From positions 540,001 through 572,000 of the forward strand of contig OZ252279.1 of NCBI GenBank assembly GCA_965250005.1: a DNA stretch of 32,000 nt, read 5' to 3'. Shown here piece after piece: positions 3,983 to 18,777 of the stretch (position 1 is its first letter; each line of letters opens with the position of its first letter). The notes under the pieces are model-generated. The model saw only the letters and a program-made list of their open reading frames with translations, searched no databases and was not told the DNA's origin. The position numbers were made by a program, and so were the translations under genes. Origin of the DNA: Demequinaceae bacterium. GTDB lineage: Bacteria > Actinomycetota > Actinomycetes > Actinomycetales > Demequinaceae.

Positions 3983-5170
3983 CTACTTCAAGTTCTCCGG
4001 AATCGCGGACTGGTAGGACTCAATGTTGCGCTTGACCTCGGTTACTGAGTCGCCGCCGAACTTTTCGAGCACCGCGTCCGCAAGGGTGAGCGCGACCATC
4101 GCCTGCGCGACCACCGCCGCCGGTGGCACCGCGCACACGTCGCTGCGTTGATGGTTGGCCTTCGCCGCCTTTCCTGTGGACGTATCAATGGTGTCGAGAG
4201 CGTTCGGAACAGTGCTGATGGGCTTCATCGCAGCGCGAACGCGTAGTGGGGTGCCGTTGCTCATGCCGCCCTCCACTCCTCCGGCGCGGTTTGATCGCCG
4301 CGCAACTCCGCCGCCGGCTGCATACTCGATCTCGTCGTGAGCAGCAGAACCCCGGCGCGCTGCAGTCCGGAAGCCATCACCAAACTCGACGCCCTTGATG
4401 GCCTGGATCCCCATCAGTGCGCCAGCAAGCCGCGCGTCCAGCCTGCGGTCCCAGTGGACATGGCTGCCGAGACCCACGGGAAGGCCATGGGCGACAACCT
4501 CAACTACGCCGCCCAGGGTGTCCCCGTCCTTCTGGCACTGGTCGATTTCGGCAACCATCGCAGTGGAGGTTTCCGCGTGGAAGCAGCGCACCATGTCCGC
4601 GTCGAGCGCTGCGGTGTCGGAGAACTCGGGTACCGGCGCGTTTTCGGGAACAGAGATCGTGCCGAGCGCGACGACGTGGGACACCAGCTCGATACCCGCC
4701 GCCTGCGAGAGGAACGCCTCAGCGACGGTACCGAGCGCCACGCGAGCAGCGGTCTCCCGCGCCGACGCGCGCTCGAGGATCGGCCGCGCGTCATCGAAGC
4801 CGTACTTGGTCATCCCCACAAGGTCAGCGTGCCCCGGGCGCGGGCGGGTGAGCGCGGCTGCTCGCGCGCCCTTCATTTCCGCGGCATCCACCGGGTCAAC
4901 GGACATGACGGTTTCCCACTTGGGCCACTCGGTGTTTCCCACCTCGATGGCGACGGGGCCGCCTTGCGTCACTCCGTGCCGGACCCCGCTCAACACACGG
5001 ACGGCGTCCTTCTCAAATGCCATGCGTGCGCCGCGCCCGTAACCGAGCCTGCGACGCGCGAGCGCGTCCTGAATGTTGGTCGTCGTCACCTCGACGCCAG
5101 CAGGCAGCCCCTCCAGGGTGCCTACCAGCGCGGGGCCGTGCGATTCTCCAGCGGTGAGCCATCTGAGCAT
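3983..5170 (-). CDS. aroC: chorismate synthase
   Basis: 395-aa [28 protein letters not shown] and RPRPGHADL are chorismate synthase signatures. Confidence 0.95.
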
Positions 5171-5230: not shown

Positions 5231-6010
5231 CTACGAGTTGCCAATCGGAATGAAGAAGTTGCGGTCGTTGGGTTCCGGCTCGGGCTCGGGCGAAGCGCTC
5301 GGATCCGGGCTGGGCTCGGGCGACGGACTCACCGTCGGCTCTGGTTCCGGCCGCACCTGGATTTCCGGGTTTCCATAGTCAAGAGTGAAGAAGAACCCGC
5401 TCACCACAAGCCGCAAATCACCGGCGTCAAGAGAGACACCGAGGTCTTCCACGGACTCCGTGACCGCCGTGACCGCGAATGCCGTAACAAGGAAGTACTG
5501 ATGATCTCCCAGCTGCAGCGAGTTCATGAGTCCCAGAATCTGCTCTCGCGTGCCAGCGGTGGTGAGGTTGACCTGAGTGGCAATGACGCCCGTGAACGCG
5601 AGGCCGTCAACTTGTGAGACCAGACCCACCTCTGCCGCTGGAATGGCGAGCGAGATTCGGGGAGTGACGGTTTGAATGCTCCCAATCTCTTCAGCGAAGA
5701 TCACCAGGTCATTTTCCTCAAACAACTCGAATAGCAAGCGGCGAAGTTCCGGGATTTCGCGCTCGGCGGGAAGGTCATCTCGAATTTCGTAGATTTCTTC
5801 GCGGTACTGCGGAATCTGTTCAGCGTCTGCGATTCGTTTGGCGAGGCTCAACTCGAGTTGGAAATTGGAGTCCTCCTGTGCAATGCGCGCCTCCTCGGCG
5901 TCTGCCGCGCGCGCGAACCTCGGGCCGATGCCCAGCATCCACGTGACGAGGGCCAGAATCACCGCGAGAGCAATAACTCCTCCGACTAGCACACCGTTTG
6001 AACCTCTCAT
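5231..6010 (-). CDS. pilO: type IV pilus alignment-complex protein, PilO-like, with Pro/Glu/Ser-rich C-terminal tail
   Basis: 259-aa ORF. Short cytoplasmic N-terminus, one TM helix (VLVGGVIALAVILALVTWML), a charged coiled-coil-like stretch, then a globular region. ATGA overlap with the upstream pilN-like gene and the pilM-pilN-pilO order support the call. Assignment rests on architecture and context rather than strict motifs. Confidence 0.7.
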   Translation of the reverse strand: MRGSNGVLVGGVIALAVILALVTWMLGIGPRFARAADAEEARIAQEDSNFQLELSLAKRIADAEQIPQYREEIYEIRDDLPAEREIPELRRLLFELFEENDLVIFAEEIGSIQTVTPRISLAIPAAEVGLVSQVDGLAFTGVIATQVNLTTAGTREQILGLMNSLQLGDHQYFLVTAFAVTAVTESVEDLGVSLDAGDLRLVVSGFFFTLDYGNPEIQVRPEPEPTVSPSPEPSPDPSASPEPEPEPNDRNFFIPIGNS

Positions 6011-6984
6011 GCCGATGCCTCCTCGTTGGCGCTAGGGCTTGGTGAGGGCTCGGGGGCCACTCCGCCGCCAGCAAGCGCCGCAACAGCCTCGGCTGCCTTC
6101 GCCTCGGTAAACTGGATCAATGCGTCTTCAGCGTCTTGAAGAGCCTCTGCGGCGGCTGCGAGAACTGTCTCCGCTACCGCGAGCGTGGCCTGCGCCTCCG
6201 CTACGCCTTGATCTGCCTCGATCGCGGCTGTCAGAATCGCAGCCGCGGTTGCCACAGATACCGTCGCAAGTTCGACCTCTTCGGAGGCCTCCACAATAGC
6301 CTCACGGTAGATTTCGCGCTCGTTCCACGCGTCGCTAAACCGACCGGACAGTGCGACAGCGGTAATGCGGACAGACCCGCTGAACGTGTAATACTCGTCT
6401 TCCTCTACCTGGCGAGCCGCGCCAGGGATTGTCGTTCGGGCCAAGCCTGGTACTGAATTGAGCGCCTCTTCAAGGTCAGCAATGTTTGGGTATTCCAGGC
6501 TGCGGCCGCTGAAAGACAGGACGCCAATATCGGGGGCCGAGAATGGCCCCGCTTCTTGGCCCGCAACCACAAACGGCGTCGTTGGCAACCAGGTCAAGCC
6601 CTGGAGACTCACCGATTCGGGCATCGCGCGCGTAAGCCCGGTGATCAAATCGGACATGAGAATCTCTGTTCCGCCAAGGTAGAGTCGTGCGCTCTTCGCA
6701 TTCAGGAGCTCGGCCTGAATCACGGGGACGTGGTCGTACAACGCGATCTCGTCGTTGAGGGCCTGCGTCTTCGCATTTTCGAGTGCGAGCCTATCTTCCG
6801 CGGATCTCGCCTGCAGTTCGGTAAATCCAACCAACGCCACCAGCAACACAATGAACATTACGAACGCAACGATAATCAGTGCGCGACTGCGTCCCTTCGC
6901 ACGCCTGCTCTCGACCTCTGGCGGGATGAGGTTGACCTGTGGCGCAGCAGGAGCCTTGACGGAATCTGGGACTGTAGTGGTCAT
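6007..6984 (-). CDS. pilN: type IV pilus alignment-complex protein, PilN-like, with long Ala/Glu-rich C-terminal extension
   Basis: 325-aa ORF. N-terminal VNLIPPE matches the PilM-binding INLLP-type motif of PilN and is followed by one TM helix (ALIIVAFVMFIVLLVALVGF). ATGA overlap with the pilM stop. Confidence 0.75.
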   Translation of the reverse strand: MTTTVPDSVKAPAAPQVNLIPPEVESRRAKGRSRALIIVAFVMFIVLLVALVGFTELQARSAEDRLALENAKTQALNDEIALYDHVPVIQAELLNAKSARLYLGGTEILMSDLITGLTRAMPESVSLQGLTWLPTTPFVVAGQEAGPFSAPDIGVLSFSGRSLEYPNIADLEEALNSVPGLARTTIPGAARQVEEDEYYTFSGSVRITAVALSGRFSDAWNEREIYREAIVEASEEVELATVSVATAAAILTAAIEADQGVAEAQATLAVAETVLAAAAEALQDAEDALIQFTEAKAAEAVAALAGGGVAPEPSPSPSANEEASA

Positions 6985-8045
6985 GCGCCAACCTCCCCAA
7001 AAGCGAGTCCTATACAGATCGGTACGAGGGACGCACGTCCGTCGGCCAGGTCGCTGCGTACGCGACCGGAGACCTTCACCCGCGCCAGCCCGTCGCCAAA
7101 ACTTACGGGTAGACGGCTCGCGCTCGCAAGATACTGGCCCAACCCAGGAAGATGAGCGCCACCACCGGTCAGTACCACGTGCTGGATCGCGCCGCCCGGG
7201 TTGTTCCCTGCGTAGTAAACGAACGTATTGCGGATCGCCTCAACGAGGGTCCGAGAAGTCGTGGTGAGCGCCTCGGCGCCAAGCTTGTATTCCTCTGCGA
7301 CGGCAAAACCGATGCCGATTTCACGCTTGAGCTGTTCGGCATCCTGCGTGGAGACCTGCAATGCGCTTGCGACCGCATCGGTCGCGTCCTGGCCTCCGGA
7401 CGGAAGGGTGCGAACGAACCGCGGTGCACCGTCGGAGACCACAAGCACGTTGGTCGTGCGCGCGCCTATGTCAACGAAAGCGACGGTCTTTCCGCCCCAG
7501 TCGCCCGTTGCTTGCGCGCGGTATAGCGCAAATGCGTTTAGGTCGACCATCGTGGGCCGGAGTCCAGCAGACTCGATCGCGAGGACGTGCGTCGCAACTG
7601 TTGCTTTTGGTGCGGCGACAATAATGCCGCGCAGCGCGCGACCACCGGTCTCCGCATCGACCTCGGCCGTTGGGAAAAAGTCGAGGAGCGCCTCGTCCGT
7701 CGACATGGGGAGCATTTCCCCTACTTGAAACGGCAGCGACTGTCGGAGTTGCCCCATGGGCAACGACGGAATCTCGAGCTCGCGAACCACCACGCGCTGA
7801 CTGCCGACTCCTGAAATCACGTGTTTGCTGGAGAACTTGCCCTTGGTCCAAAGTCTTTTTAGAACGGACGCGACCGATTGGATTTCGTGAATCTCGCCGT
7901 CGCCAACGGCGCCTGCGGGGAGCGCCAACTCAGCGTACCTGACCAGCGTGGCTGATCCGGTCGCGGGCCCTCGGCCGGAGAATTCGACCTCGGCGGCGCG
8001 CACGTGCGTCGTGCCGATATCTAGGCCAACCTGACGTGTCGCCAC
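6981..8045 (-). CDS. pilM: type IV pilus assembly protein PilM (actin-like ATPase fold)
   Basis: 354-aa ORF. VGLDIGTTHVRAAEV and VDIGARTTNVLV are the phosphate-binding motifs of the actin/FtsA/PilM fold. GTG start with GAAGGGAG 5 nt upstream. Confidence 0.85.
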   Translation of the reverse strand: MATRQVGLDIGTTHVRAAEVEFSGRGPATGSATLVRYAELALPAGAVGDGEIHEIQSVASVLKRLWTKGKFSSKHVISGVGSQRVVVRELEIPSLPMGQLRQSLPFQVGEMLPMSTDEALLDFFPTAEVDAETGGRALRGIIVAAPKATVATHVLAIESAGLRPTMVDLNAFALYRAQATGDWGGKTVAFVDIGARTTNVLVVSDGAPRFVRTLPSGGQDATDAVASALQVSTQDAEQLKREIGIGFAVAEEYKLGAEALTTTSRTLVEAIRNTFVYYAGNNPGGAIQHVVLTGGGAHLPGLGQYLASASRLPVSFGDGLARVKVSGRVRSDLADGRASLVPICIGLAFGEVGA

Positions 8046-8109
8046 GGCGCTCCCTTCATAGATTCCGTCTCATCAGACTATCGGCAGTATCACAGGCTGT
8101 CCTTAGCAA

Positions 8110-8883
8110 TCAGGTGATGAGTTTGAGGTATATATCACCTATCGCGGGCCCCGCTAGGTAGCCTGTCCAGGCAGCCACAATCAGCGCGGGTCCATAAGGT
8201 ACCTGCGACTTGCGGCGAAGTCTGCCCAATAGGAGACCCACAATAGCGGCAACTCCGCCGATCATCGGGCCAAGGAATCCGCCTACGGCCAGTTCTGCAT
8301 AACCCAGGTAGCCCGCCGCCATTCCAAGCAAGCCTGCGGTCTTCACGTCGCCGAACCCCATGCCTTTGGGGTAGATCAGCCACGCGAGGCCGTAATAACC
8401 GCCCCATGCGGCAAATCCAATACCGGCGCGCCCAAGATCGCCCCACGCGCCCTGAACTGCAGCATGTGCGGCTAGCGTCACTCCGAGGATCCCGTAGCTC
8501 GGAAGCACCAGCGAATTCGGAAGCCGCTTGACGTCCAAGTCGATGAAGAGCAGCGCGACGGAGACGACAGCAAGGTAGGCAAAACCCAAAGCCAAGAGCG
8601 TTAGGCCCCACGCCAAGTAGACGGCGACGAAAAGCGCGGCTACCAGGATTTCCACGAGCGGGTAGCGGCCTGAAATGGGCTCACGACAGTGCCGGCACCT
8701 CCGGCGCAGCCACAGCCACGACAACACCGGGATATTGTCGTACCAATCGATATCGTGCGCGCACCTCGGGCAATGACTTGAGCCGTTGACCCAATCTTGT
8801 CCCTTTGGGACCCGCGCAATTAGTACGTTCGTAAACGAGCCAACGATCAACCCGACCGCGACTACACCAAGTGTTTCTATCAC
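8110..8883 (-). CDS. pilD: bifunctional prepilin peptidase / N-methyltransferase (peptidase A24)
   Basis: 257-aa polytopic ORF. Paired cysteine motifs CPRCAHDI and CRHCREPI match the methyltransferase Zn motif. Both A24 catalytic Asp regions are present (FIDLDVKRLPN and GMGFGDVKTAG), plus the C-terminal VPYGPALIVAAW. Confidence 0.9.
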   Translation of the reverse strand: MIETLGVVAVGLIVGSFTNVLIARVPKGQDWVNGSSHCPRCAHDIDWYDNIPVLSWLWLRRRCRHCREPISGRYPLVEILVAALFVAVYLAWGLTLLALGFAYLAVVSVALLFIDLDVKRLPNSLVLPSYGILGVTLAAHAAVQGAWGDLGRAGIGFAAWGGYYGLAWLIYPKGMGFGDVKTAGLLGMAAGYLGYAELAVGGFLGPMIGGVAAIVGLLLGRLRRKSQVPYGPALIVAAWTGYLAGPAIGDIYLKLIT

Positions 8884-8889
8884 TCGCGG

Positions 8890-10380
8890 CTAGAAATGCT
8901 CTTGCTTGAAGACAAGCTCTACCTCGGAACCCTCGGCGGCCTCGACCTCGCCAACGACTAGTACGTCGGTTGGCAATTCCGCGGGCGCATAGAAGAATTT
9001 CTGGTGTGCGGTGAGGTCTACTTCGCCGGCGTAAATCTGGCCGTAGGTGTAGGTGTTGTTCTTGAATTCAACCACCTTCGGCGTGTAGAGGAAGATCTCC
9101 GTCGGCGGCTCCACCGTCGAGTTAGCGCTGAAAACAAGGTTCCCGTTTGTCGAGTTGTCGGACGGCACGATCAGGTAAAGCGTGAACGCTTCGCCCGGAA
9201 CTGAACTGATGTTCAGGCGGTTCGAGCCGTGAAATGCCTCGACAAAGAGCACTGTGTCTGCCCGCAGAATGATCGAACCCTTGTTCTTGGTCTCAAGATC
9301 ACAGTGGCGCAGGTCGTACACCGCAGGCTTGGTCGTGGCGGGGATTGTGATGGTCTTGCTTCCGATCTGGCACTCGTCGCTCAGACCCGCATGGGCCTTG
9401 AACTCGGTGGCGCCAAAGTCGTCAAATTCTGGAGTCCAATCCGTTATGTCGTACTCAAGAGTCGGAAATGCGATCGGCAGGAGGTTGGGTATTCCCACAA
9501 CGTTTTCTTCAAAGGTTCCGCCGACCAGAAGTGAATTCGACGTGACCGTGCCACCGATGAGCACGTTACCGCCAACTCCGGTGTTCGGATGCTGCGGGAT
9601 CGCATTGCCCTGTCGAATGGTTACGTCGCCCTCGACGCTGTTGTACGAAAAGTTGTTCTTGCTCTTCCAGTCGTATTGCACCCAGAGATCACCCTTGATT
9701 ACACACCCGTGGTTGTCAAAGTCGGCACCGCCCTGAACGATGTACAAACTTCCACTGACGGATACACCATGCTTGCACGTCCAGTCGCCGTCGTTGACCC
9801 AAATGTCTCCGTTTTCTCCCACGACACTCGGCTCGAGGTCAAAGTTCGCGTTGACGTCAAGCCCCGCGCCCGAGAAGATCGCGGAACTTACCGACGTGCC
9901 CGTCGACTCACGCGGAGTGAGGACCACTTTGGCGCGTACAACGCGCTTGGGGTTCAGCCCGAAGAACTCTTCTTCCGGAGTCCCTGTTGCCGTCACCATG
10001 GCGCCATACGGCGTCCCCGCGATGGTGCCGCCCGCAGGGCAATCCAGCGCGTCTCCGCTTTGATCCGTATATTCGATCGTGACGTTGACGCGGACCGCGT
10101 TGTTTCCCGAGCCAATCGTCTTGTTGTTTGCAAGCGCCTCACAGGGGCTTGCTCCCTCCAACTCGAGCAGCGTGGCGTCAACAGCCGCTTCGGCGGCGTG
10201 TACCTCAGCTGTTCGCACACTGTCACGTCCGGCGTCTCGCGACACGATGATGGCTTGAGTCACGACGAGCGTTGCGAGGGATATGCCGATGAGCGCGACT
10301 GCAAGTGCAGCCACCATCGCCGATCCTCCATCACCCGAGTTTCGCAAGGATACATTGCGGTTCATAATTGCCTTTCTCAC
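8890..10380 (-). CDS. PilX-N/GspK-like minor-pilin-type protein with large C-terminal beta-helix-like domain (candidate pilus tip factor)
   Basis: 496-aa ORF. The N-terminus SGDGGSAMVAALAVALIGISLATLVV followed by AEVHAAEAAVDA resembles the PilX N-terminal domain: a hydrophobic helix, no Glu5, then an AAEAG-like motif. Repetitive G-x-[VIL] strands span about aa 165-305. GTGA overlap with the upstream gene. An ATG at 10365 with GAAAGG upstream is an alternative start. Confidence 0.6.
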   Translation of the reverse strand: MRKAIMNRNVSLRNSGDGGSAMVAALAVALIGISLATLVVTQAIIVSRDAGRDSVRTAEVHAAEAAVDATLLELEGASPCEALANNKTIGSGNNAVRVNVTIEYTDQSGDALDCPAGGTIAGTPYGAMVTATGTPEEEFFGLNPKRVVRAKVVLTPRESTGTSVSSAIFSGAGLDVNANFDLEPSVVGENGDIWVNDGDWTCKHGVSVSGSLYIVQGGADFDNHGCVIKGDLWVQYDWKSKNNFSYNSVEGDVTIRQGNAIPQHPNTGVGGNVLIGGTVTSNSLLVGGTFEENVVGIPNLLPIAFPTLEYDITDWTPEFDDFGATEFKAHAGLSDECQIGSKTITIPATTKPAVYDLRHCDLETKNKGSIILRADTVLFVEAFHGSNRLNISSVPGEAFTLYLIVPSDNSTNGNLVFSANSTVEPPTEIFLYTPKVVEFKNNTYTYGQIYAGEVDLTAHQKFFYAPAELPTDVLVVGEVEAAEGSEVELVFKQEHF

Positions 10381-11060
10381 ACAGGTGGGATAACACTGCA
10401 GTTTGAGTCGGAGTAGCCAAACACGGTGTTGCGACCGGTGACTACGGTGCTCACGACTACGGGCTTGGAGCGATCGTCCGCCAATGGATCGAGAATCCGC
10501 AGCGTCACGCGAATGCTCTGAGCGGATGTGCCGGAGTTCTGGTTCGCGTCAATCCAGAAAGGCGGCCACGTCTGCGGATCGGCGGCGTCAATTGTTCCAC
10601 TCACCGGCGCGGCCACCGAGTTCTGTGCGACAACGTACCAGTCGGCCACGTCGCCCCAACTCAGTTCGTAGTCTGGATCCCAGGTCCGGTACTCAAGGTT
10701 TCCAAATTCCGCCTCGTCCGGGATGTTGACGCGCCACTGGGCGCATTTGAGTTCGCCGCCCTCCTGGGTGTACAGGCGCATCGAGTAACCCGCCGATACG
10801 CCGCTTTCGGCGACACCGTCGGCCGCCGGATCCTTAATGAGGTTGCCTGATCGGACCTGCCGGTCTATCTGCGAAACGCCCAGCCGCGCCTGTTGCACGG
10901 CGCGCTCGCGCGCAAGGTTGTCGCTCGCCTGATAGGTGAGATTGATCAAGATTGTGAATACCATCGCGAGCAGCATCGAGAACAGTGTCATGACGACGAG
11001 CATCTCCATCAGGCTGAATCCAGAATCGCGCGCTGCGTGGCGCCTAGGCATCGGGAGCAC
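10377..11060 (-). CDS. minor pilin, PilW/GspJ-like (prepilin-type N-terminal cleavage/methylation domain)
   Basis: 227-aa ORF. Class III signal peptide ...HAARDSG|FSLMEMLVVMTLFSMLLAMVF with Glu at +5. Overlaps the upstream gene by 17 nt, or 8 nt if the ATG at 11051 is used. Confidence 0.75.
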   Translation of the reverse strand: MLPMPRRHAARDSGFSLMEMLVVMTLFSMLLAMVFTILINLTYQASDNLARERAVQQARLGVSQIDRQVRSGNLIKDPAADGVAESGVSAGYSMRLYTQEGGELKCAQWRVNIPDEAEFGNLEYRTWDPDYELSWGDVADWYVVAQNSVAAPVSGTIDAADPQTWPPFWIDANQNSGTSAQSIRVTLRILDPLADDRSKPVVVSTVVTGRNTVFGYSDSNCSVIPPV

Positions 11061-12906
11061 CCCGGTATCCGGCAGACGCCTGCGAGCCGGTCAGGGTCGC
11101 ACCCACGTTGATCTCGTATTCGTAGGTGCCGCCTGCACCATCATCGACGGTCACCTCGTATGTTGTCGAAACTGAAATCGCCCCGACGGAGGCCGATATT
11201 TTGCACAGGTCCGCCACGCACTCGGGATCGTCATCGGACAGGCCCGGCGGGATATCACCGGTAATTGTCACGGTCGTAGTCGCAATCACGTTGATATTGC
11301 CGCCGGGCGGCGTCCAAGTGAGGACCGGTATCTCGGGAGCCTCAATGACCCGATTCGTCGAAACGTTGATCGGGACTTCCACGTAGTCGGCAATGTCATC
11401 GTCCCAAAACCACAAGGTCGCTGACCGGGTGATCACGGGAGCAGTTGTCTTCTGGTCGTGGCCCCGCTCGACCTTGACCTCGTCTTGGTATGCGGTGATA
11501 TACACGATGCCGTTCCACGCGGCGTCATTGTTTCCGGAGTCTTTCCATACTCGGGCTTCCGGGAACGAGAAGTGAATGGACGCGCTTGATGCTGACGCCC
11601 CCGCAGCAACACATCCCTCGTTGGTCACCGTCGTGCAGGCGATCGTTCCGGGATTCGCGGAATCGGAAAAACGGGCGACCCAGGACTCTTTGGCGGTTCC
11701 GGTAGCGCTCCCTCTGTACCAGGGCGACATCCCGAATCTCTCCGCTGCGCTGTTGGTGTAGTCGAGCCGGACTCTCGACTTGGTTAGTCCGCCAATATTC
11801 GCCTGCGCGCACGGGGTTCCCGCTGCCACACCAACGGCGCAGGCCTCGCTGACTGACGAATGCGTGCTCCCAGCCCCAAACTGGTCGCTATCGAAATAGG
11901 CGAAGAATTCAGCATCCACCGCTGACGTGATCGTATTGGGCGACGCCCCTGAGTGCGCGCGGACGTCTGTGTTGTCTATACCCGGATTGCCGACCGAAAC
12001 GGTATCGTCCGAAGCCTCGGTCACGATGAGTTCAAACCCGCGTGGGTAAGTGCCGGAGTAATCCGAGCCGTCCGCCTTGTGCACGCGCTCGCCGCCGTAC
12101 GCCAAGGATGCGTCGACGTTCGTTACCTGCTGGCTGGTTAGGCTCGCGCGCGTTTGCGAAGTCGTAATCCCAAGCGTGAACATCTCTCGACCGGGCATGA
12201 TTGATACGGCCGCACCACCTGCCAAATCGGGAAGATTGGCGGTCGCGCTGAACGAGAGCGACGCACTCGACGACGACGCGCTAAATCTGGCTTGACATGA
12301 ACTCAGGAAAGGCTGCGACTCGAGGCTCGCCAGGTCACTGCAACCCGCAGACGGCGCGTACGCGGTTGTCCGGTAGACGTCAGTTCGCATCTCACCCGAG
12401 CTGTTGTCTTCCCACGTCACAACAATCGTCATGCCCAACGTTTCGGCCCCGCCAAGCCCCTCTGTCACATATGCGCGTGTGGTGTAAACGGCGCCCGTTG
12501 CCTCAGGTGAAATATTGACAGTCTTGTTCGAGCCCGTCGAGTCGAAGAGAGGGGGCCACGCGTCGAGTCGGTTCTGTGCACCTTCGGTGCCAGTAGCGTT
12601 CGCAACTACGATCTCTTCGGCCACTCCTTCAATCGTCAAGGTGGTCCCAGACACGTAGGGGTCACCGCCAGACGCTGATTTGAAGTCGGCGTCCAAGCCT
12701 CGCGAAAGCACCGCGTACGGCATCGCGCGCATCTGCTCGATCGCGCCGTTCGCGTAGGCGGTAGCTTGCTGCCGGTGTCCTGCCTCCACGACCGAAACCA
12801 GTGCGGATGTTTGCACGGCCATGAGCACAAGGAGGACGCCCGTGATAATCATCATGGCGACAACAAGTTCAGCCATCGTGAATCCTTCTTCACGAGAGTT
12901 CAACAT
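11044..12906 (-). CDS. large modular minor pilin, PilV/GspI-like N-terminus plus about 400-aa extra module
   Basis: The ORF track gives 11044..13020 (658 aa). The prepilin motif MLNSREEG|FTMAELVVAMMIITGVLLVL starts at the ATG at 12906 (AAGG 7 nt upstream). The 38 upstream codons run through the pilA-distal hairpin, so the start was re-called, giving 620 aa. AGHRQQATAYANGAIEQMRAMPY resembles PilV. Confidence 0.75.
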   Translation of the reverse strand: MLNSREEGFTMAELVVAMMIITGVLLVLMAVQTSALVSVVEAGHRQQATAYANGAIEQMRAMPYAVLSRGLDADFKSASGGDPYVSGTTLTIEGVAEEIVVANATGTEGAQNRLDAWPPLFDSTGSNKTVNISPEATGAVYTTRAYVTEGLGGAETLGMTIVVTWEDNSSGEMRTDVYRTTAYAPSAGCSDLASLESQPFLSSCQARFSASSSSASLSFSATANLPDLAGGAAVSIMPGREMFTLGITTSQTRASLTSQQVTNVDASLAYGGERVHKADGSDYSGTYPRGFELIVTEASDDTVSVGNPGIDNTDVRAHSGASPNTITSAVDAEFFAYFDSDQFGAGSTHSSVSEACAVGVAAGTPCAQANIGGLTKSRVRLDYTNSAAERFGMSPWYRGSATGTAKESWVARFSDSANPGTIACTTVTNEGCVAAGASASSASIHFSFPEARVWKDSGNNDAAWNGIVYITAYQDEVKVERGHDQKTTAPVITRSATLWFWDDDIADYVEVPINVSTNRVIEAPEIPVLTWTPPGGNINVIATTTVTITGDIPPGLSDDDPECVADLCKISASVGAISVSTTYEVTVDDGAGGTYEYEINVGATLTGSQASAGYRGAPDA

Positions 12907-12986
12907 ACGTCGCCTTAGGTCACGCACTGCTCTTCTCCCTCCATGTGCCAAATCCCAGATCTCGCAGGATTCCTCAACACGCCTCC

Positions 12987-13016
12987 GGGTGGGGGCCTCA
13001 AGAGAGGTCCCCACCC
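12987..13016 (-). terminator. GC-rich stem-loop after pilA (candidate attenuator/terminator or mRNA stabiliser)
   Basis: mRNA sense GGGUGGGGA-CCUC-UCUU-GAGG-C-CCCCACCC gives 8 + 4 bp. It is preceded by a second hairpin at 13017..13040 (GCAGCAUU...AAUGCUUGC). No U-tract follows. Confidence 0.45.
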
Positions 13017-13040
13017 GCAAGCATTATGTCGAAATGCTGC

Positions 13041-13460
13041 CTAGCAACTAGCGCCAACAGTGAGGCCGCTGGCTGCGGAGTACTCGACTCCGCCCACGGA
13101 CTTGTCGCCCTCAAGGTTGTAGACCCAGACACACCAGTCGCTGCTGGTGGTTCCGGAAACGCCTCCAAGCGCAACGTTGTCCGACTGGTTGCCGATGTTG
13201 GTTCCGGAGATGGAGTAGTTGCTACCGTCACCCGCAATAGCCGGCATCGACGTTCCGTCGACCCAGTACGTGGCAATTTCCTTGCCGAGGGTGGAGACGT
13301 CAGCCTTGGCAGCTGCATCTTCAGCCTTCTTGCGCTGGCTCAGGAAGAGCGGAATTGCAACAGCGGCAAGGATGCCGATGATAATCATAACGACGAGCAA
13401 CTCGATCAGGGTGAAACCCTGGTCCTTCTGCTCCATATTCTTACGGATTCGCGCGATCAT
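13041..13460 (-). CDS. pilA: major type IV pilin (type IVa-like)
   Basis: 139-aa ORF. MIARIRKNMEQKDQG|FTLIELLVVMIIIGILAAVAIPLF is the canonical class III signal peptide with Glu5. AAGGAG lies 4 nt upstream of the ATG at 13460. Two Cys (DWC...GASC-end) are placed like a D-region disulfide. First pilin gene after pilC. Confidence 0.9.
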   Translation of the reverse strand: MIARIRKNMEQKDQGFTLIELLVVMIIIGILAAVAIPLFLSQRKKAEDAAAKADVSTLGKEIATYWVDGTSMPAIAGDGSNYSISGTNIGNQSDNVALGGVSGTTSSDWCVWVYNLEGDKSVGGVEYSAASGLTVGASC

Positions 13461-13580
13461 GGCGCTCCTTCTTTTTTGTTTTCTTCTCTATGGTTTATCC
13501 GCGAGGGAACCCCCGCGGTTTCTACAACCGGCAGTCCGCCCAACTCGAAGGCCGTACGTTTCTTCCGGTCGAAGCTCTAT

Positions 13581-14810
13581 TTAGTTGATCAACTCGAAGA
13601 TGCCGAAGATCGGCATATACAGGCCGATGATCATGGTGCCGATGATGCTGCCCAATACACCAATCATCAGTGGCTCGATCAGTGAGGTCAAGGCGTCTGT
13701 GGTGGATTCCACTTCCTGGTCGTAGAAGTCCGCGATCTTGTCAAGCATGGTGTCGAGCGCACCCGTGTCTTCACCCACCGAAATCATCTGAACCACCATG
13801 GCAGGGAAGACCGGGTGCTCCGCCAGCGGCCCGGCGAGGGTGTTTCCGGTGCGCACGGACTCCCGCACGTCGTTTGCCGCATGTTCGATTACGACGTTTC
13901 CGCTCGCCTCGCCCACGATGTCGAGCGCCTGCAGGATGGGAACGCCCGCGCGGATCATGGCCCCGAAGTTGCGAGTGAACCGCGAGATGGCGATTTTCTG
14001 AATGAGGCCGCCAAACACCGGAAGCTTGAGATACAACGGCTCGACCTTTTCGCGGAACGCCTTCTTGTTCTTGTTCTTGGTCCACAGCACGGACACGGCG
14101 AAACCTACGACGATCATGGGGATCGTGCCTACTTTTAAGAAACCAGAGATAGCAACGAGTGCCGCGGTAAGAGGTGGCAACTCGCCACCGAGAGTCGCGA
14201 ACATATTGGCGAACACGGGAACGATGAAAAGCAGCATGCCAATGACGGCAACGATCGCGATCACGAAAACCACGACAGGGTAGGCCATGGCCGACTTCAC
14301 CTTATTTCGCAGCTTCACTTCCGACTCAAAGTTTTCGGCAATGGACAACAGCACCGAGTCCAGGAATCCGCCAACTTCGCCGGCCCGAATCATGTTAATC
14401 ATGAGCGGAGGAAAGACTGCCGGGTGCCGGCCGATCGCTTGGGAGAGAGAGACGCCCGTCTCTACATCCGACCGCACGTCAAGAATGACCTTGCCAAGCG
14501 CGGCATTTTCCGTCTGCTCGGCAAGAATGTTCAGCGCGCGAATAATTGACAGGCCCGCCTGAATCATGGTCGCGAGTTGGCGCGAAAGGATCGAGATGTC
14601 CTTGAGGCCGATCTTGTCCGTGAGGCCGGGGATCTTGATTTCTCTCTTGAGTGCGCTCGCCCTAACGGCATCAATAGAGATGGGAGCGAGGCCCATGGAT
14701 CGCAGCTTGGACGACACCGCGGCCTCGTTGGGCGCCTCGATCTCGCCGTTCTGGATGCGCCCCTGAGTATCACGGTACGAATACTTGAAAGTCTGCGTCG
14801 CGGTCGCCAT
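13581..14810 (-). CDS. pilC: type IV pilus platform protein PilC (T2SS F family)
   Basis: 409-aa polytopic ORF with the duplicated T2SSF signature (GEVGGFLDSVL and GEDTGALDTML). Confidence 0.93.
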   Translation of the reverse strand: MATATQTFKYSYRDTQGRIQNGEIEAPNEAAVSSKLRSMGLAPISIDAVRASALKREIKIPGLTDKIGLKDISILSRQLATMIQAGLSIIRALNILAEQTENAALGKVILDVRSDVETGVSLSQAIGRHPAVFPPLMINMIRAGEVGGFLDSVLLSIAENFESEVKLRNKVKSAMAYPVVVFVIAIVAVIGMLLFIVPVFANMFATLGGELPPLTAALVAISGFLKVGTIPMIVVGFAVSVLWTKNKNKKAFREKVEPLYLKLPVFGGLIQKIAISRFTRNFGAMIRAGVPILQALDIVGEASGNVVIEHAANDVRESVRTGNTLAGPLAEHPVFPAMVVQMISVGEDTGALDTMLDKIADFYDQEVESTTDALTSLIEPLMIGVLGSIIGTMIIGLYMPIFGIFELIN

Positions 14811-14819
14811 GAGTTGTCC

Positions 14820-16124
14820 CTATACCCCTTGGGTTCCGACGGACTGGCCCTGCTTCTGGCCGCCCTCACGTCCGGCGAGTCGGTTAAACTCCTCGACGTG
14901 GTGGCACTTCTCTAGCCCGGTCTCGTACGAAATCTTGTTGATGCGCACCAACTCAGCCAAGTGCTGGTCCATGGTGTGCATACCGAGTGACGACCCTGCC
15001 TGCATCGCGGAGTAAATCTGGTGCGTCTTGCCCTCGCGAACCAGGTTACGAATAGCAGACGTCGCGATCAGCACTTCTGTGGCGACAGCGCGGCCGGGTC
15101 CGTCGCTGCGCTTGCACAATGTCTGACAGACAACCCCCTGAAGCGCGGTCGCTAACTGTGTCCTAATCTGACCCTGCTGGTGCGACGGGAATACATCGAT
15201 CACGCGGTCGATCGTCTGCGCCGCGTCCTGGGTGTGAAGGGTCGCGAATACCAGGTGGCCGGTCTCCGCAGCTGTCAGCGCCACAGAAACTGTTTCGAGG
15301 TCGCGCATCTCGCCCACCAAGATAATATCCGGGTCCTGACGCAACACGTGCTTCAGGGCGTTTCCAAAAGAGTGTGTGTCGGCGCCAACCTCGCGCTGGT
15401 TAACAAGCGACTTCTTGTGGCGGTGGAGGAACTCGATGGGATCCTCAACGGTCATGATGTGATCACTGCGGCTGCGGTTCGCAAGATCAATAATCGACGC
15501 CAGCGTCGTGGATTTGCCGGATCCCGTCGGTCCGGTAACAAGCACCAACCCGCGCGGAATCCCCGCGAAGTTTCCCACGACTGGAGGGATACCGAGGGAC
15601 TCGAGAGGCTGAATCTCGTAAGGGATGATGCGGAAAGCCGCACCCAGCGAATCGCGCTGCTGGTAGAGGTTCACGCGAAAACGCGCCTCCCCCACTAGCG
15701 CGTACGCGAAGTCAAGTTCGAGTTCCGCCTCAAACTGCTCTCGCTGCTTTTGGGAAAGGATGCTGTACATCACTCGCTGGACGGCGTCGGGTTTCAGGAG
15801 CGCAAACCCCTCGAGTTGCGTAAGCGCGCCGTCGACACGCGCCATAGGCGGTGCGCCTACCGTGATGTGAAGGTCGGATCCACCCATCGCAAGCATCTTG
15901 CGAAGCGCGCCAGAAAGGTCCAGGTCGTCCGGCTGAGAATCTCTGCTGAGTCCAACACGCCCGGCCCCAGCTGAAGCCGCCTGTGCCGCCTGCGGAGCGG
16001 GCGCCGATCCGGGTGCTGGAGGAACAGTTGCCGTCGAGGCGCCAGCTGCCGGACTTGCTTGCGCAGCGCGCGCCTGGGAGCGAGTCACTTGGCCCTGTGC
16101 CAACTCATGCGGGCTCTGCGTCAC
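14820..16124 (-). CDS. pilT: type IV pilus retraction ATPase PilT with about 70-aa Ala/Pro/Gln-rich N-terminal extension
   Basis: 434-aa ORF. Walker A GPTGSGKSTT, Walker B ILVGEMRD, His box LVFATLHT and the PilT-specific AIRNLVREGK are all present. GTG start at 16124 with GGGAG 7 nt upstream. Confidence 0.92.
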   Translation of the reverse strand: MTQSPHELAQGQVTRSQARAAQASPAAGASTATVPPAPGSAPAPQAAQAASAGAGRVGLSRDSQPDDLDLSGALRKMLAMGGSDLHITVGAPPMARVDGALTQLEGFALLKPDAVQRVMYSILSQKQREQFEAELELDFAYALVGEARFRVNLYQQRDSLGAAFRIIPYEIQPLESLGIPPVVGNFAGIPRGLVLVTGPTGSGKSTTLASIIDLANRSRSDHIMTVEDPIEFLHRHKKSLVNQREVGADTHSFGNALKHVLRQDPDIILVGEMRDLETVSVALTAAETGHLVFATLHTQDAAQTIDRVIDVFPSHQQGQIRTQLATALQGVVCQTLCKRSDGPGRAVATEVLIATSAIRNLVREGKTHQIYSAMQAGSSLGMHTMDQHLAELVRINKISYETGLEKCHHVEEFNRLAGREGGQKQGQSVGTQGV

Positions 16125-16201
16125 AACTTTTCTCCCGGTCTTGCGTCGAGTTGATAGCGACTGCTGTCTTATCGACCATTTTGGACAATTCTTGAGCGGC
16201 G

Positions 16202-17860
16202 CTACTTAGCGACGCGGAACAACTCCTCGATTGACGTCAGGCCCTCCTGAACCTTGGTCCAACCGTCCTGGAGCAGCGTCTGCATTCCCTGCTCTTTTGC
16301 GACCTTCGCGATCTCGGCAGACGAAGCGCGCGCCACCGCGAGCCTCTCGATATCCTCGGTGACTGTCATAACTTCGTGCAGCGCAAGCCTGCCGCGGTAG
16401 CCCGTGTTGGAGCAGGCGCTGCAGCCCTCTGGGCGAAATAGGATAGGCACCTTGTTTCCGGTCCACCCGAATCGTTCCTTGAGCGCGTCGGCCTCGGGTT
16501 CGTACTCACTTTTGCACTTAGTACACAGCAAGCGGGCAAGTCGCTGGGCGACGACACAGTCAATTGCGGAGCCAACGAGGAACGGTTCGATGTCCATCTC
16601 GATTAGTCGCGTGATAGCGCTCGGCGCATCGTTGGTGTGAAGAGTCGACAGCACGAGGTGTCCGGTGAGTGCCGCTTCAATCGCAATCTGCGCGGTCTCG
16701 TGGTCGCGGATCTCACCGACGAGCACAACGTCGGGGTCCGACCGCAAGATCGAGCGTAGGGCGCTCGCAAAAGTGAGCCCGGCCTTCACGTTTACCTGCA
16801 CTTGATTGATATTGGGAATCCGGTACTCAACGGGATCCTCAACCGTGATCACGTTGATTTCGGGGCGCGCCACCTGATTGAGCGTTGCGTACAACGTGGT
16901 TGACTTTCCCGACCCCGTAGGTCCTGTCACCAGAATCATTCCGTACGGCTTTTGGAACGACTCCTGATAACGCTCGTAGTTTTCTGGCCGAATGCCCAGG
17001 TCTTCAAGGTCCATCGTTGCCGTGGTGTTGTCGAGGATGCGCATGACGATCTTCTCGCCCCACACGGTTGGCAGGGTGGCGACGCGGAGGTCAATCTTGC
17101 GTCCCTGGTGGTTGACGGAGAGTCGACCATCCTGGGGCCGGCGGCGTTCTGCGATATCCACGTCAGCCATGATTTTGAGGCGCGAGATCACTCCGTTCTG
17201 GATTGCCTTCGCGGCCCGCTGCATCTCGTGGAGCACGCCGTCAATGCGGTACCGGACGCGCATGTCCTTCTCGGCTGGCTCGATGTGAATATCCGAGGCT
17301 CGGTCCTGGATCGCCTGGGTAATGAGCAGGTTGACGAACCGGACGATTGGCGCATCGTCCTCGATGACGTCGCCCATGCCGTCTGCTTCGCCATCAGAAT
17401 TATCTTCGAGCGAGTCCTGGAGGTCGTCCAACTCGCTATCGGCACGACAGAACCGGTCGATTGCCGCGACCACGTCGTCGTGCGCGGCCACCACGGGGAT
17501 GACCTCACGGTTAGTGAGGGTGCGGAAATCATCTACGGCAACCACATTGCCTGGGTTGGACATGGCAATCCGAATGACGCCTTCGTCAATCCCGATCGGC
17601 AGCGCCGTGTGGCGCCGGCAAACCTGAGCGGGAACCAGGGCGACGGCGGCTTGGTCTACCGGATAGTCGGCGAGTTCGACGAACTCCATGCCTACCTGAC
17701 TCGCAAGAGCACGAACCAGCTGAGCTTCCGATATCAGCCCGAGCTCGACAAGCGTGCGCCCCAGAGACTGGCCTCGCTTCTGCTGCTCGTCGATGGCATC
17801 CATCAACTGCTCTTCAGACAGCGAACCGTCCTCAAGAAGGATGGAACCCAGTTGCTTCAC
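16202..17860 (-). CDS. pilB: type IV pilus extension ATPase PilB (GspE family)
   Basis: 552-aa ORF. N-terminal T2SSE_N/MshEN-like repeats, Walker A GPTGSGKSTT, VLVGEIRD, LVLSTLHTNDA, and the tetracysteine CTKC...CSAC typical of extension ATPases. GTG start with GAGGGAG upstream. Confidence 0.93.
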   Translation of the reverse strand: MKQLGSILLEDGSLSEEQLMDAIDEQQKRGQSLGRTLVELGLISEAQLVRALASQVGMEFVELADYPVDQAAVALVPAQVCRRHTALPIGIDEGVIRIAMSNPGNVVAVDDFRTLTNREVIPVVAAHDDVVAAIDRFCRADSELDDLQDSLEDNSDGEADGMGDVIEDDAPIVRFVNLLITQAIQDRASDIHIEPAEKDMRVRYRIDGVLHEMQRAAKAIQNGVISRLKIMADVDIAERRRPQDGRLSVNHQGRKIDLRVATLPTVWGEKIVMRILDNTTATMDLEDLGIRPENYERYQESFQKPYGMILVTGPTGSGKSTTLYATLNQVARPEINVITVEDPVEYRIPNINQVQVNVKAGLTFASALRSILRSDPDVVLVGEIRDHETAQIAIEAALTGHLVLSTLHTNDAPSAITRLIEMDIEPFLVGSAIDCVVAQRLARLLCTKCKSEYEPEADALKERFGWTGNKVPILFRPEGCSACSNTGYRGRLALHEVMTVTEDIERLAVARASSAEIAKVAKEQGMQTLLQDGWTKVQEGLTSIEELFRVAK

Positions 17861-17931: not shown

Positions 17932-18777
17932 TCACCGAAAACGGAGTGAGAGATGTGACACAAGTGCAACGTCCATTTGTCCGATTGGCGCAGCTCTACC
18001 TGTCATAAGTCTGACCTGCTCGGCTGCCTGCATCAACAACATTCGCGTGCCGCCGACAGTTGTCCCACCCCGCTCTGACCACGCCTCTTGGAGCGGTGTC
18101 TCGGGAGGGTCGTAGACGGCGTCCATGAGGAACGCGCCCGGCTGAACATCCAATAGCGCCTTGCCCAACTCGCCACCGACCTCTGCAGGGACTGTGGAGA
18201 CCACCGCATCCGCGCGTGCGAGCGCGGACGGCGCTGACCCGAAATCGGTGAACCTGGGCTCGCTTCCCATCTTGGCTGCCGCGCGGATGAGGCCGCCTGT
18301 GCGCGCACGATTCCGCACCACAATCGTGGGTGCCTTGCAGCCCAGTTCCGCGACCGCGGCCATGGCCGCGGTCGCCGTCGCACCTCCACCGAGGATCACA
18401 CCTTCGTTTACGGACTCAGAGCCCGCCTCGCGCAGCGCCTGCTTCACGCCGTAAACGTCCGTGTTGGCTCCGACAAGGTTTCTGGTACCCCCGCCGCCGT
18501 CGAAGAGAACAGTGTTGACCGCCCCCAGCATCTTGGCCATGGGCTCCACAAAGTGCAGGTGCGCGAGCGCCTCAACCTTGAGCGGCATGGTGAGGCTCAA
18601 ACCAGCCCAACTGGCGTCGAGCCCCGCAATGAATCCTTCGAGTTGGTCGGCGGTCACGTCGTATGCATTGTACTCCCAATCAAGCCCGAGCGCCTGGTAT
18701 GCCGCCCGGTGCAGGACCGGCGACAGCGAGTGCTCGATAGGGTGCCCGAGCACGCCGGCCTTGCGGACGGCGGTCAT
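17932..18777 (-). CDS. aroE: shikimate dehydrogenase
   Basis: 281-aa ORF. GVLGHPIEHSLSPVLHRAAY (substrate-binding SxS motif) and the glycine-rich LGGGATATAA NADP site. Confidence 0.9.
   Translation of the reverse strand: MTAVRKAGVLGHPIEHSLSPVLHRAAYQALGLDWEYNAYDVTADQLEGFIAGLDASWAGLSLTMPLKVEALAHLHFVEPMAKMLGAVNTVLFDGGGGTRNLVGANTDVYGVKQALREAGSESVNEGVILGGGATATAAMAAVAELGCKAPTIVVRNRARTGGLIRAAAKMGSEPRFTDFGSAPSALARADAVVSTVPAEVGGELGKALLDVQPGAFLMDAVYDPPETPLQEAWSERGGTTVGGTRMLLMQAAEQVRLMTGRAAPIGQMDVALVSHLSLRFR

Follow-up and report, generated by a model that had tools for sequence, protein, structure and literature searches.

A gene cluster at positions 5231 to 17860 of a 32,000-nucleotide stretch of DNA from a Demequinaceae bacterium (GenBank assembly GCA_965250005.1, contig OZ252279.1, positions 540,001 to 572,000 of the forward strand; hereafter the window) very probably encodes, on the chromosome, a type IVa pilus (T4aP) machine of the single-membrane kind that is functional and has been inherited vertically. 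Eleven co-directional open reading frames (ORFs) on the minus strand fill the interval between aroE and aroC, with junctions that are small gaps or 4-nt overlaps, and are predicted to encode PilB, PilT, PilC, PilA, three minor pilins, PilD, PilM, PilN, and PilO. As far as can be read from the sequence, all parts for building and retracting a pilus are present and intact. A preliminary description of the window had proposed a complete secretin-less, PilT-containing T4aP gene set between aroE and aroC of a high-GC actinobacterium, and our analysis supports this proposal; the eleven ORFs lie where it had placed them, and the best matches of PilD are to Demequinaceae (Micrococcales). No secretin, PilP, or pilotin family has a match among the scanned ORFs of the window, and PilQ, TsaP, and PilY1 are likewise missing from the window, consistent with the single-membrane layout that had been read from the cluster.

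Components of the predicted pilus machine

Scans with profile hidden Markov models recognise nine of the eleven ORFs directly, PilN weakly, while PilO (as a single sequence against Pfam) and p496 (against Pfam and NCBIfam) match nothing. Among the families that the preliminary description had named for the eleven proteins, T2SSE, T2SSF, N_methyl, Peptidase_A24, and PilM_2 are matched, PilN falls below its cutoff, and PilO is not found. The motifs quoted there for PilB, PilT, PilC, PilA, PilD, and PilN are all present, as checked by regular expression or, for PilA, read in the sequence.

The extension motor PilB carries a Walker A motif (GPTGSGKS) and a tetracysteine pair (CTKC...CSAC). Its N-terminal residues 3-55 match the model NF053729, c-di-GMP_motif, at 59.6 bits (curated cutoff, 38), and PilB is predicted from this MshEN motif to bind cyclic di-GMP (c-di-GMP). 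The retraction motor PilT carries AIRNLVREGK at residue 357, together with a Walker A motif and a His box, and a Shine-Dalgarno sequence (GGGAGA) stands in front of its GTG start. PilT begins with an extension of ~65 amino acids (aa) that is rich in Ala, Pro, and Gln (15930-16124, minus strand) and is kept as coding sequence in L082, a metagenomic locus of a close relative; PilT ORFs of other actinobacterial loci are 460-530 aa long. In L082 the gene caller cut pilT to 358 aa, although the coding sequence of the extension is conserved. In the platform protein PilC the GE..G.LD..L motif is doubled, as GEVGGFLDSVL and GEDTGALDTML. The prepilin peptidase PilD contains the pairs CPRC and CRHC, D115, and GFGD179VK; across 116 homologues D115 is invariant, D179 almost invariant, and the four cysteines (C38, C41, C63, and C66) are conserved.

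PilM exceeds its cutoffs, and PilN and PilO are assigned by family profiles made from related loci, so that a PilM-PilN-PilO subcomplex is predicted. Specifically, the PilN profile matches PilN of Myxococcus xanthus (3jc8, E 2.4e-7), and the profile of the family at the pilO position matches PilO of M. xanthus (E 1.2e-19) and of Pseudomonas aeruginosa (E 3.2e-13). The C-terminal tail of PilN (6007-6250, minus strand) is Ala-rich and then Pro/Ser-rich, that of PilO (5231-5350, minus strand) consists of PEPEP/SPSP sequence, and most of the aligned PilN and PilO homologues are shorter than the window versions. These tails might span a thick cell wall.

The major pilin precursor PilA has a short T4a-type leader of 15 aa, the class III signal G/FTLIELLVV (here and below, the slash marks the leader boundary or its counterpart), and a C-terminal Cys pair. 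The preliminary description had counted three further pilin-like proteins. Two of them, p658 and p227, carry a canonical class III signal, while the third, p496, is non-canonical and lacks Glu5. p658 has a PilV-like N-terminus (G/FTMAE) followed by a beta-rich module of ~430 aa without known relatives, and a Shine-Dalgarno sequence, GGAGGGAG, lies ahead of its GTG start at 12927. One of its 20 homologues, in Demequina mangrovi, is named 'type IV pilus modification PilV family protein'. The AlphaFold2 (AF2) model of p658 has a predicted local distance difference test score (pLDDT) of 80 and comes from a shallow alignment of 19 sequences; against the PDB we found no meaningful fold or sequence match, and the profile matches solved pilins over the N-terminal helix alone. 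The p227 profile likewise matches solved pilins only in the N-terminal helix, and homologues of p227 stand at the same position in the related loci L001, L009, L022, L028, and L005.

p496 begins with a hydrophobic N-terminus (GG/SAMVAAL), followed by a predicted beta-solenoid. Its family shares a conserved N-terminal motif, [DE][RE]G/xA[LM][IV], in which Glu5 is missing, and in most of the 20-odd loci with aligned genes its place is immediately upstream of pilD. A database copy of p496 (P0281, 475 aa) begins within the hydrophobic helix (window positions 10300-10380, minus strand); we favour an upstream start (GTG 10380 or ATG 10365) because the homologues keep the [DE][RE]G/xA motif. In a Foldseek comparison with the PDB, the AF2 model of p496 (pLDDT 75.7, likewise from a shallow alignment) has ComZ of Thermus as its top match (6qvi, E 1.7e-8, probability 1.0), followed by ice-binding beta-solenoids; a sequence-level search against PDB chains gave no match. 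The fold model is a lead to p496 being a ComZ-like tip pilin, not proof of membership.

Table 1. Features of the window with their positions and the evidence for each assignment
Feature	Positions	Strand	Evidence
pilB, extension ATPase with N-terminal MshEN motif (predicted c-di-GMP binding)	16202..17860	minus	T2SSE E 2.5e-140; MshEN E 4.6e-21
pilT, retraction ATPase	14820..16124	minus	TIGR01420 483 bits (cutoff 319), residues 71-410
pilC, platform protein, 409 aa	13581..14810	minus	T2SSF E 4.8e-68, two stretches within one protein
pilA, major pilin precursor, 139 aa	13041..13460	minus	N_methyl E 4.8e-10
p658, large minor pilin	11044..12927 (ORF 11044-13020, start GTG at 12927)	minus	TIGR02523 PilV, N-terminal region, E 2.8e-8
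p227, small minor pilin, G/FSLME	10377..11060	minus	N_methyl E 4.3e-7
p496, putative ComZ/GspK-like non-canonical minor pilin	8890..10380	minus	conserved N-terminus and fold model
pilD, prepilin peptidase/N-methyltransferase	8110..8883	minus	A24_N_bact E 1.2e-33; Peptidase_A24 E 8.6e-8
pilM, actin-like cytoplasmic component	6981..8045	minus	PilM_2 E 2e-42; TIGR01175 158 bits (cutoff 133)
pilN, VNLIPPE N-terminus, transmembrane helix, long Ala/Pro-rich C-terminal tail	6007..6984	minus	Pfam PilN 18.8 bits, below cutoff
pilO, transmembrane helix, coiled coil, alpha/beta domain, Pro-rich tail	5231..6010	minus	family profile
Candidate sigma-28/WhiG-type promoter before pilT	16169..16196	minus	CTCA-N16-GTCGATAA, 44 nt upstream of start
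Near match to sigma-28/WhiG motif before pilM	8078..8105	minus	TAAG-N16-GCCGATAG, one -35 mismatch, fails strict rule
GC-rich hairpin right after pilA, candidate terminator/attenuator	12985..13018	minus	12940-13045 folds at -53.3 kcal/mol, z -5.06
aroE, shikimate dehydrogenase, upstream flank	17932..18777	minus	Shikimate_dh_N E 9.7e-25 and SDH_C
aroC, chorismate synthase, downstream flank	3983..5170	minus	Chorismate_synt E 2.6e-116

Elsewhere in the window, a gene for an MMPL-family transporter (25245-27524, plus strand) is the sole long plus-strand gene amid minus-strand rpsD, rarA/mgsA, aspS, and hisS. No tRNA or Rfam family was found in the window.

Proposed mechanism, control, and role

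From these assignments and the established mechanism of T4aP, an assembly pathway can be proposed. Acting on PilA and on both canonical minor pilins, PilD would cleave the leader after Gly and add the N-methyl group. Together, the three minor pilins would form a priming/tip complex, with the Glu5-less, ComZ/GspK-like p496 probably serving as its cap. A PilB hexamer would act through PilC to drive PilA polymerisation, the MshEN motif probably providing a response to c-di-GMP, and PilT would depolymerise the fibre. PilM, PilN, and PilO would anchor the motors in the membrane; it is by its N-terminus (VNLIPPE) that PilN is known to bind PilM. A secretin would not be needed because there is no outer membrane. 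Expression would draw on a sigma-28/WhiG-type promoter before pilT, and the proportion of major to minor pilins would be set by the hairpin that follows pilA.

A published rule for sigma-28 promoters (PMC12871210) calls for T(A/C)AA-N16-GCCGA or CTCA-N16-17-GCCGA within 200 bp of the start (<=200 bp), with <=1 mismatch in the -10 element and the central CGA intact. The site before pilT (-10 element GTCGATAA) conforms to this pattern, and L082 has TCAA-N15-GCCGATAA at the same place, with GCCGATAA as a perfect -10 element. The near match before pilM is almost identical in L082, and Demequina capsici carries GCCGATAT there. Furthermore, across 1.47 Mb of related loci (L002-L082), motifs of this type number 57 on the pil strand and 4 on the opposite strand, and they stand nearly always just upstream of pilT, pilA, pilM, pilB, or pilD. 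A 2026 preprint predicts control by WhiG (sigma-28 family) for the type IV pilus clusters of Actinoplanes, Rubrobacter, Jonesiaceae, Sanguibacteraceae, Cellulomonadaceae, and Cryptosporangiaceae (PMC12871210), and does not mention Demequinaceae; the distribution of the motif across the related loci agrees with its predictions for Actinoplanes, Rubrobacter, Cellulomonadaceae, and Sanguibacteraceae.

The hairpin after pilA has no U-tract. Strong hairpins of differing sequence occupy the same position in the Demequinaceae relatives L082, L001, and L062, which suggests a conserved terminator or attenuator that would set the major:minor pilin ratio. A simple scan of the intergenic gaps for sigma-70 promoters and terminators gave nothing above background. 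The pil genes are probably transcribed in several units.

The most likely role of the pilus, by analogy, is reversible surface attachment, possibly with twitching, and the analogy is with Actinoplanes, the sole studied actinobacterial case. The type IV pili of Actinoplanes missouriensis zoospores are needed for attachment to hydrophobic surfaces, according to PMC12871210 (citing Kimura 2019). Loci of the Actinoplanes group share pilB, pilT, pilC, pilA, pilD, and pilM with the window, and some have PilN/PilO-family ORFs and a p496-family gene. Identities between the window and Actinoplanes spp. are 53-56% for PilB, 61-63% for PilT, 44-47% for PilC, and 43-46% for PilD, and both are linked to sigma-28-family promoters. 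In contrast to the window, the Actinoplanes loci do not adjoin aro genes, and the p496-family gene lies downstream of pilO in L019 and L059 rather than upstream of pilD. Actinoplanes also makes flagellated zoospores, whereas nothing comparable is known in Demequinaceae.

Given the ComZ-like tip, DNA uptake is a genuine alternative. In this case the machine would be mainly a competence pilus, in which the tip binds DNA and PilT retraction delivers it to ComEA/ComEC encoded elsewhere, a reading that we consider unlikely, if worth keeping in view. ComZ binds DNA and a partner minor pilin, is essential for transformation and not for piliation, and has been proposed as a tip pilin (PMC6561018). Thermus thermophilus ComZ-PilA2 (6qvi) and p496 are of similar size and share a hydrophobic helix at the N-terminus that lacks a canonical PilD site, and a beta-solenoid, which in p496 is predicted; the fold neighbours of p496, ComZ and then ice-binding proteins, mirror the comparison that the ComZ authors themselves made for GspK-like ComZ (PMC6561018). 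PilT is present and strongly constrained, and the p496 family adjoins pilD in most related actinobacterial loci where it is identified. However, similarity of beta-solenoid folds says nothing about the ligand, the next-best matches are to ice-binding proteins, and Thermus differs in being a diderm with a PilQ secretin. Moreover, neither comEA nor comEC is found in the window, the only transformation pili cited for Actinobacteria in PMC6916266 are the Tad-type pili of Micrococcus luteus, and the one actinobacterial type IV pilus that has been studied is adhesive.

Integrity and ancestry of the locus

Between the window and L082, the ratio of nonsynonymous to synonymous substitution rates (dN/dS) is 0.019-0.25 over the eight genes compared, with values of 0.019 for PilB, 0.026 for PilT, 0.032 for PilC, 0.078 for PilD, 0.15 for p496, 0.16 for p658, and 0.25 for PilA. 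All eight genes are under purifying selection and the surface-exposed pilins evolve fastest, which is what one would expect if the machine works and its surface parts evolve quickly. For the predicted retractile surface filament of PilA, this selection is indirect support. In L082 itself, the p227 homologue is split into two calls of 77 and 148 aa (7831-8507), and the pilM position (10775-12305) has no gene call. These breaks look like sequencing errors rather than decay, because the '2x' tag of the contig is taken as low coverage.

The cluster is embedded in a housekeeping run, alaS-ruvX-mltG-aroE-pil-aroC-aroK-aroB-aroQ-efp-nusB. In Demequina capsici, too, aroE and aroC enclose these eleven genes, arranged in the same order. 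Two other Demequinaceae loci share the gene order, as does L082 as far as its low-coverage contig allows. To place the locus more widely, Actinomycetota were scanned with a PilD profile, using one genome per species in a taxonomically broad sample and, as query, a 10-row PilD alignment headed by a computed consensus sequence. The scan gave 80 loci, onto which the window proteins were mapped; the sample holds no Corynebacterium or Mycobacterium locus, and A. missouriensis is also outside the loci examined.

By a strict rule, aroC lies <=6.5 kb downstream of pilD in 19 loci, and four more (L004, L042, L048, and L081) are linked on inspection. Among these, L004 (Kineococcus) has mltG-aroE upstream and aroK-aroB downstream, L048 is rearranged, and L081 has alaS-ruvX-mltG-pilB. 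Linkage of the form pil-aroC-aroK-aroB or alaS-ruvX-mltG-pilB is therefore seen in 23 of 67 informative loci and in three classes of Actinomycetota, ranging over Micrococcales, Kineococcus, Frankiales, Acidimicrobiia, and Thermoleophilia (linked taxa: Demequinaceae, Cellulomonas, Actinotalea, Sanguibacter, Kineococcus, metagenome-assembled genomes of Frankiales, Acidimicrobiales, Thermoleophilaceae, Solirubrobacteraceae, and Conexibacter). The cluster lies elsewhere than the aro genes in Actinoplanes and relatives, Microbacteriaceae, Nocardioides, and Amycolatopsis. In a neighbour-joining tree, PilD sequences group by taxonomy and the aro-linked loci fall into several deep clades, and the named close homologues of PilD are all from Demequinaceae or other Actinomycetota.

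Because the linkage recurs across three classes and the PilD tree follows taxonomy, the linkage appears to be ancient rather than the result of a recent insertion. The simplest reading is that the aro-linked pil locus was kept vertically and was relocated or lost in some lineages. The preliminary description had spoken both of a machine inserted in the aro operon and of an old actinobacterial pilus locus; the first wording is not supported, and the second is backed by the linked loci and the tree. The preliminary description had further suggested that Corynebacteriales may keep just an orphan prepilin-peptidase-like gene at this site. In the literature, we found no paper on the aro linkage and nothing informative on a prepilin peptidase at aroE/aroC; for Rv2551c, a possible candidate for such a gene, a mass of 13.8 kDa and 4 transmembrane helices are given.

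Other arrangements also occur in the sample. In Acidimicrobiia and Nocardioides loci, either pilD is divergent from pilT-pilA-pilC-pilB, or the order is pilA-pilT-pilB-pilC-pilD with no detectable pilM (the two layouts comprise L035, L052, L057, L058, L061, L065, and L066 from Acidimicrobiia, and L030, L043, L051, and L053 from Nocardioides and relatives); Acidimicrobiia also hold the aro-linked type (L042 and L075). In Frankiales-like loci, pilO and aroC are separated by an additional gene, of 210-240 aa, which the window lacks (L006:5782-6414; L010:13378-14079; L038:13493-14215), and its product might be PilP-like. L068, binned as Acidobacteria, has a PilD of actinobacterial type that clusters with Actinomycetota, and is possibly misbinned.

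Several observations weigh against a functional, vertically inherited T4aP machine of the proposed design. The best NCBIfam match of PilB, TIGR02538 (PilB), scores 639 bits, under the trusted/equivalog cutoff of 675.65, and PilN and PilO are recognised by family profiles only. The classical core set of minor pilins numbers four. The window shows three candidates, of which one is ComZ/GspK-like and the others canonical, and no fourth; some related loci have 4-5 pilin-like genes. The match between p496 and ComZ has a template modelling (TM) score of 0.21-0.26, a root-mean-square deviation of 14-16 A, and an identity of 11-12%, with a model from an 8-sequence alignment. The candidate promoter before pilT has one mismatch in its -10 element, and no gene for a WhiG/FliA sigma factor lies in the window, which is only part of the genome. 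The neighbour-joining tree of PilD carries no support values. The GC content is 0.56-0.61 over 8-18 kb of the window and 0.64-0.67 in the flanks (pil genes, 0.575-0.63; aroC-aroB flank, 0.66-0.68). Finally, no transcript, filament, or phenotype is known for this organism or any Demequina, and no substantive link between Demequina and type IV pili was found.

Two of these observations touch on alternative histories of the cluster. Demequina strains are not known for pili, and the cluster could be a decaying relic from which a pilus is no longer made. Degraded loci do exist: in Frigoribacterium sp. CG_9.8 (L026, 7140-12540) a partial PilB match abuts split remnants of p496, with no match to PilT, PilC, or PilA, and in Kineococcus vitellinus (L004, 1610-2743) there is no PilB match between aroE and pilT. 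In the window, however, all eleven ORFs are intact, dN/dS is 0.02-0.25, and the catalytic residues are conserved, so that decay is very unlikely here. The lower GC content would in turn suit a recent, horizontally acquired island put into the aro operon of this lineage, as would the slightly lower GC content at third codon positions (GC3) of the pil genes (0.66-0.76, against 0.78-0.83 for aroC, aroK, and aroB). This explanation is already largely refuted: GC3 is equally low in the neighbouring aroE, ruvX, and hisS, no integrase, tRNA, or repeat boundary that would mark a mobile element is seen around the cluster in the window, the same linkage is present in three classes, and PilD relationships track taxonomy.

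Comparison with known pili and significance

Export of proteins by a pseudopilus of type II secretion system (T2SS) or Com type, with no surface pilus, is scarcely tenable: PilB scores 583 bits against GspE, PilC against GspF and PilA against GspG also score well, and the pilin domain of ComZ resembles GspK (PMC6561018), but T4aP models outscore T2SS or Com models for each protein, PilT and PilM/N/O are hallmarks of T4aP (a T2SS uses GspL and GspM), and no GspC, GspD, GspL, or GspM is present among the scanned ORFs. The gene set of the window is also distinct from that of Tad/Flp (type IVc) pili, which are found in the same phylum (Bifidobacterium breve and Micrococcus luteus), belong to the same filament superfamily, and likewise depend on a prepilin peptidase (PMC6916266). 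In Tad systems the Flp pilins are tiny, the platform paralogues are TadB and TadC, the ATPase is TadA, and PilT is missing, whereas the window encodes a T4a-type pilin of 139 aa, a single, internally duplicated PilC, both PilB and PilT, and PilM/N/O.

Among the closest known counterparts are the T4aP of monoderm Firmicutes (Streptococcus sanguinis, Clostridium perfringens, and C. difficile), which are secretin-less and have PilB/T/C/D, PilM/N/O, and a number of minor pilins encoded together in one cluster (PMC6916266). As described, they differ from the window in phylum and in minor pilin modules, and the window has in addition the PilT extension and the Pro/Ala-rich tails of PilN and PilO. 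Diderm T4aP (Myxococcus xanthus and Pseudomonas aeruginosa) have homologous PilB, PilT, PilC, PilM, PilN, and PilO; in contrast, the window lacks PilP, PilQ, TsaP, and PilY1, has three minor pilins, and holds all its genes in one locus.

In Actinomycetota, such a machine is not without precedent. T4aP in monoderms, Actinobacteria among them, are reported in a survey of the type IV filament superfamily (PMC6668835), and a 2019 review that cites it names Actinobacteria as one of the monoderm phyla likely to express T4aP; the actinobacterial pili that had been studied it still described as Tad-type (PMC6916266). Together with the tie between A. missouriensis pili and adhesion cited in PMC12871210, these reports make the preliminary statement that the function of such machines is undescribed in Actinomycetota too strong. 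Public annotation, too, already names a prepilin peptidase and a PilV family protein among Demequina proteins.

A broader proposal joins several of the features above. It holds that the aro-embedded T4aP is an ancestral organelle of Actinomycetota, a ComZ-tipped DNA-uptake pilus under the control of sigma-28/WhiG and c-di-GMP. As a whole we regard this proposal as improbable. If true, it would mean a widespread route of natural transformation in a phylum usually regarded as poorly transformable.

The type of machine is already known in actinobacteria; what deserves further attention is the deeply conserved aro position, together with the ComZ-like tip. Retractile T4aP have been studied in very few single-membrane bacteria, and in Actinomycetota in one organism only. 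With its eleven genes, the window contributes a clean example from a family that includes cultured species without sporulation (Demequina), and these may be more tractable than Actinoplanes. The aroE-aroC position, shared by three classes, is the more useful result, offering a fixed landmark from which gain, relocation, and decay of the locus can be traced. The ComZ-like tip, the c-di-GMP motif of PilB, and the sigma-28-type promoters provide testable hypotheses on what the pilus would bind and when it would be made.

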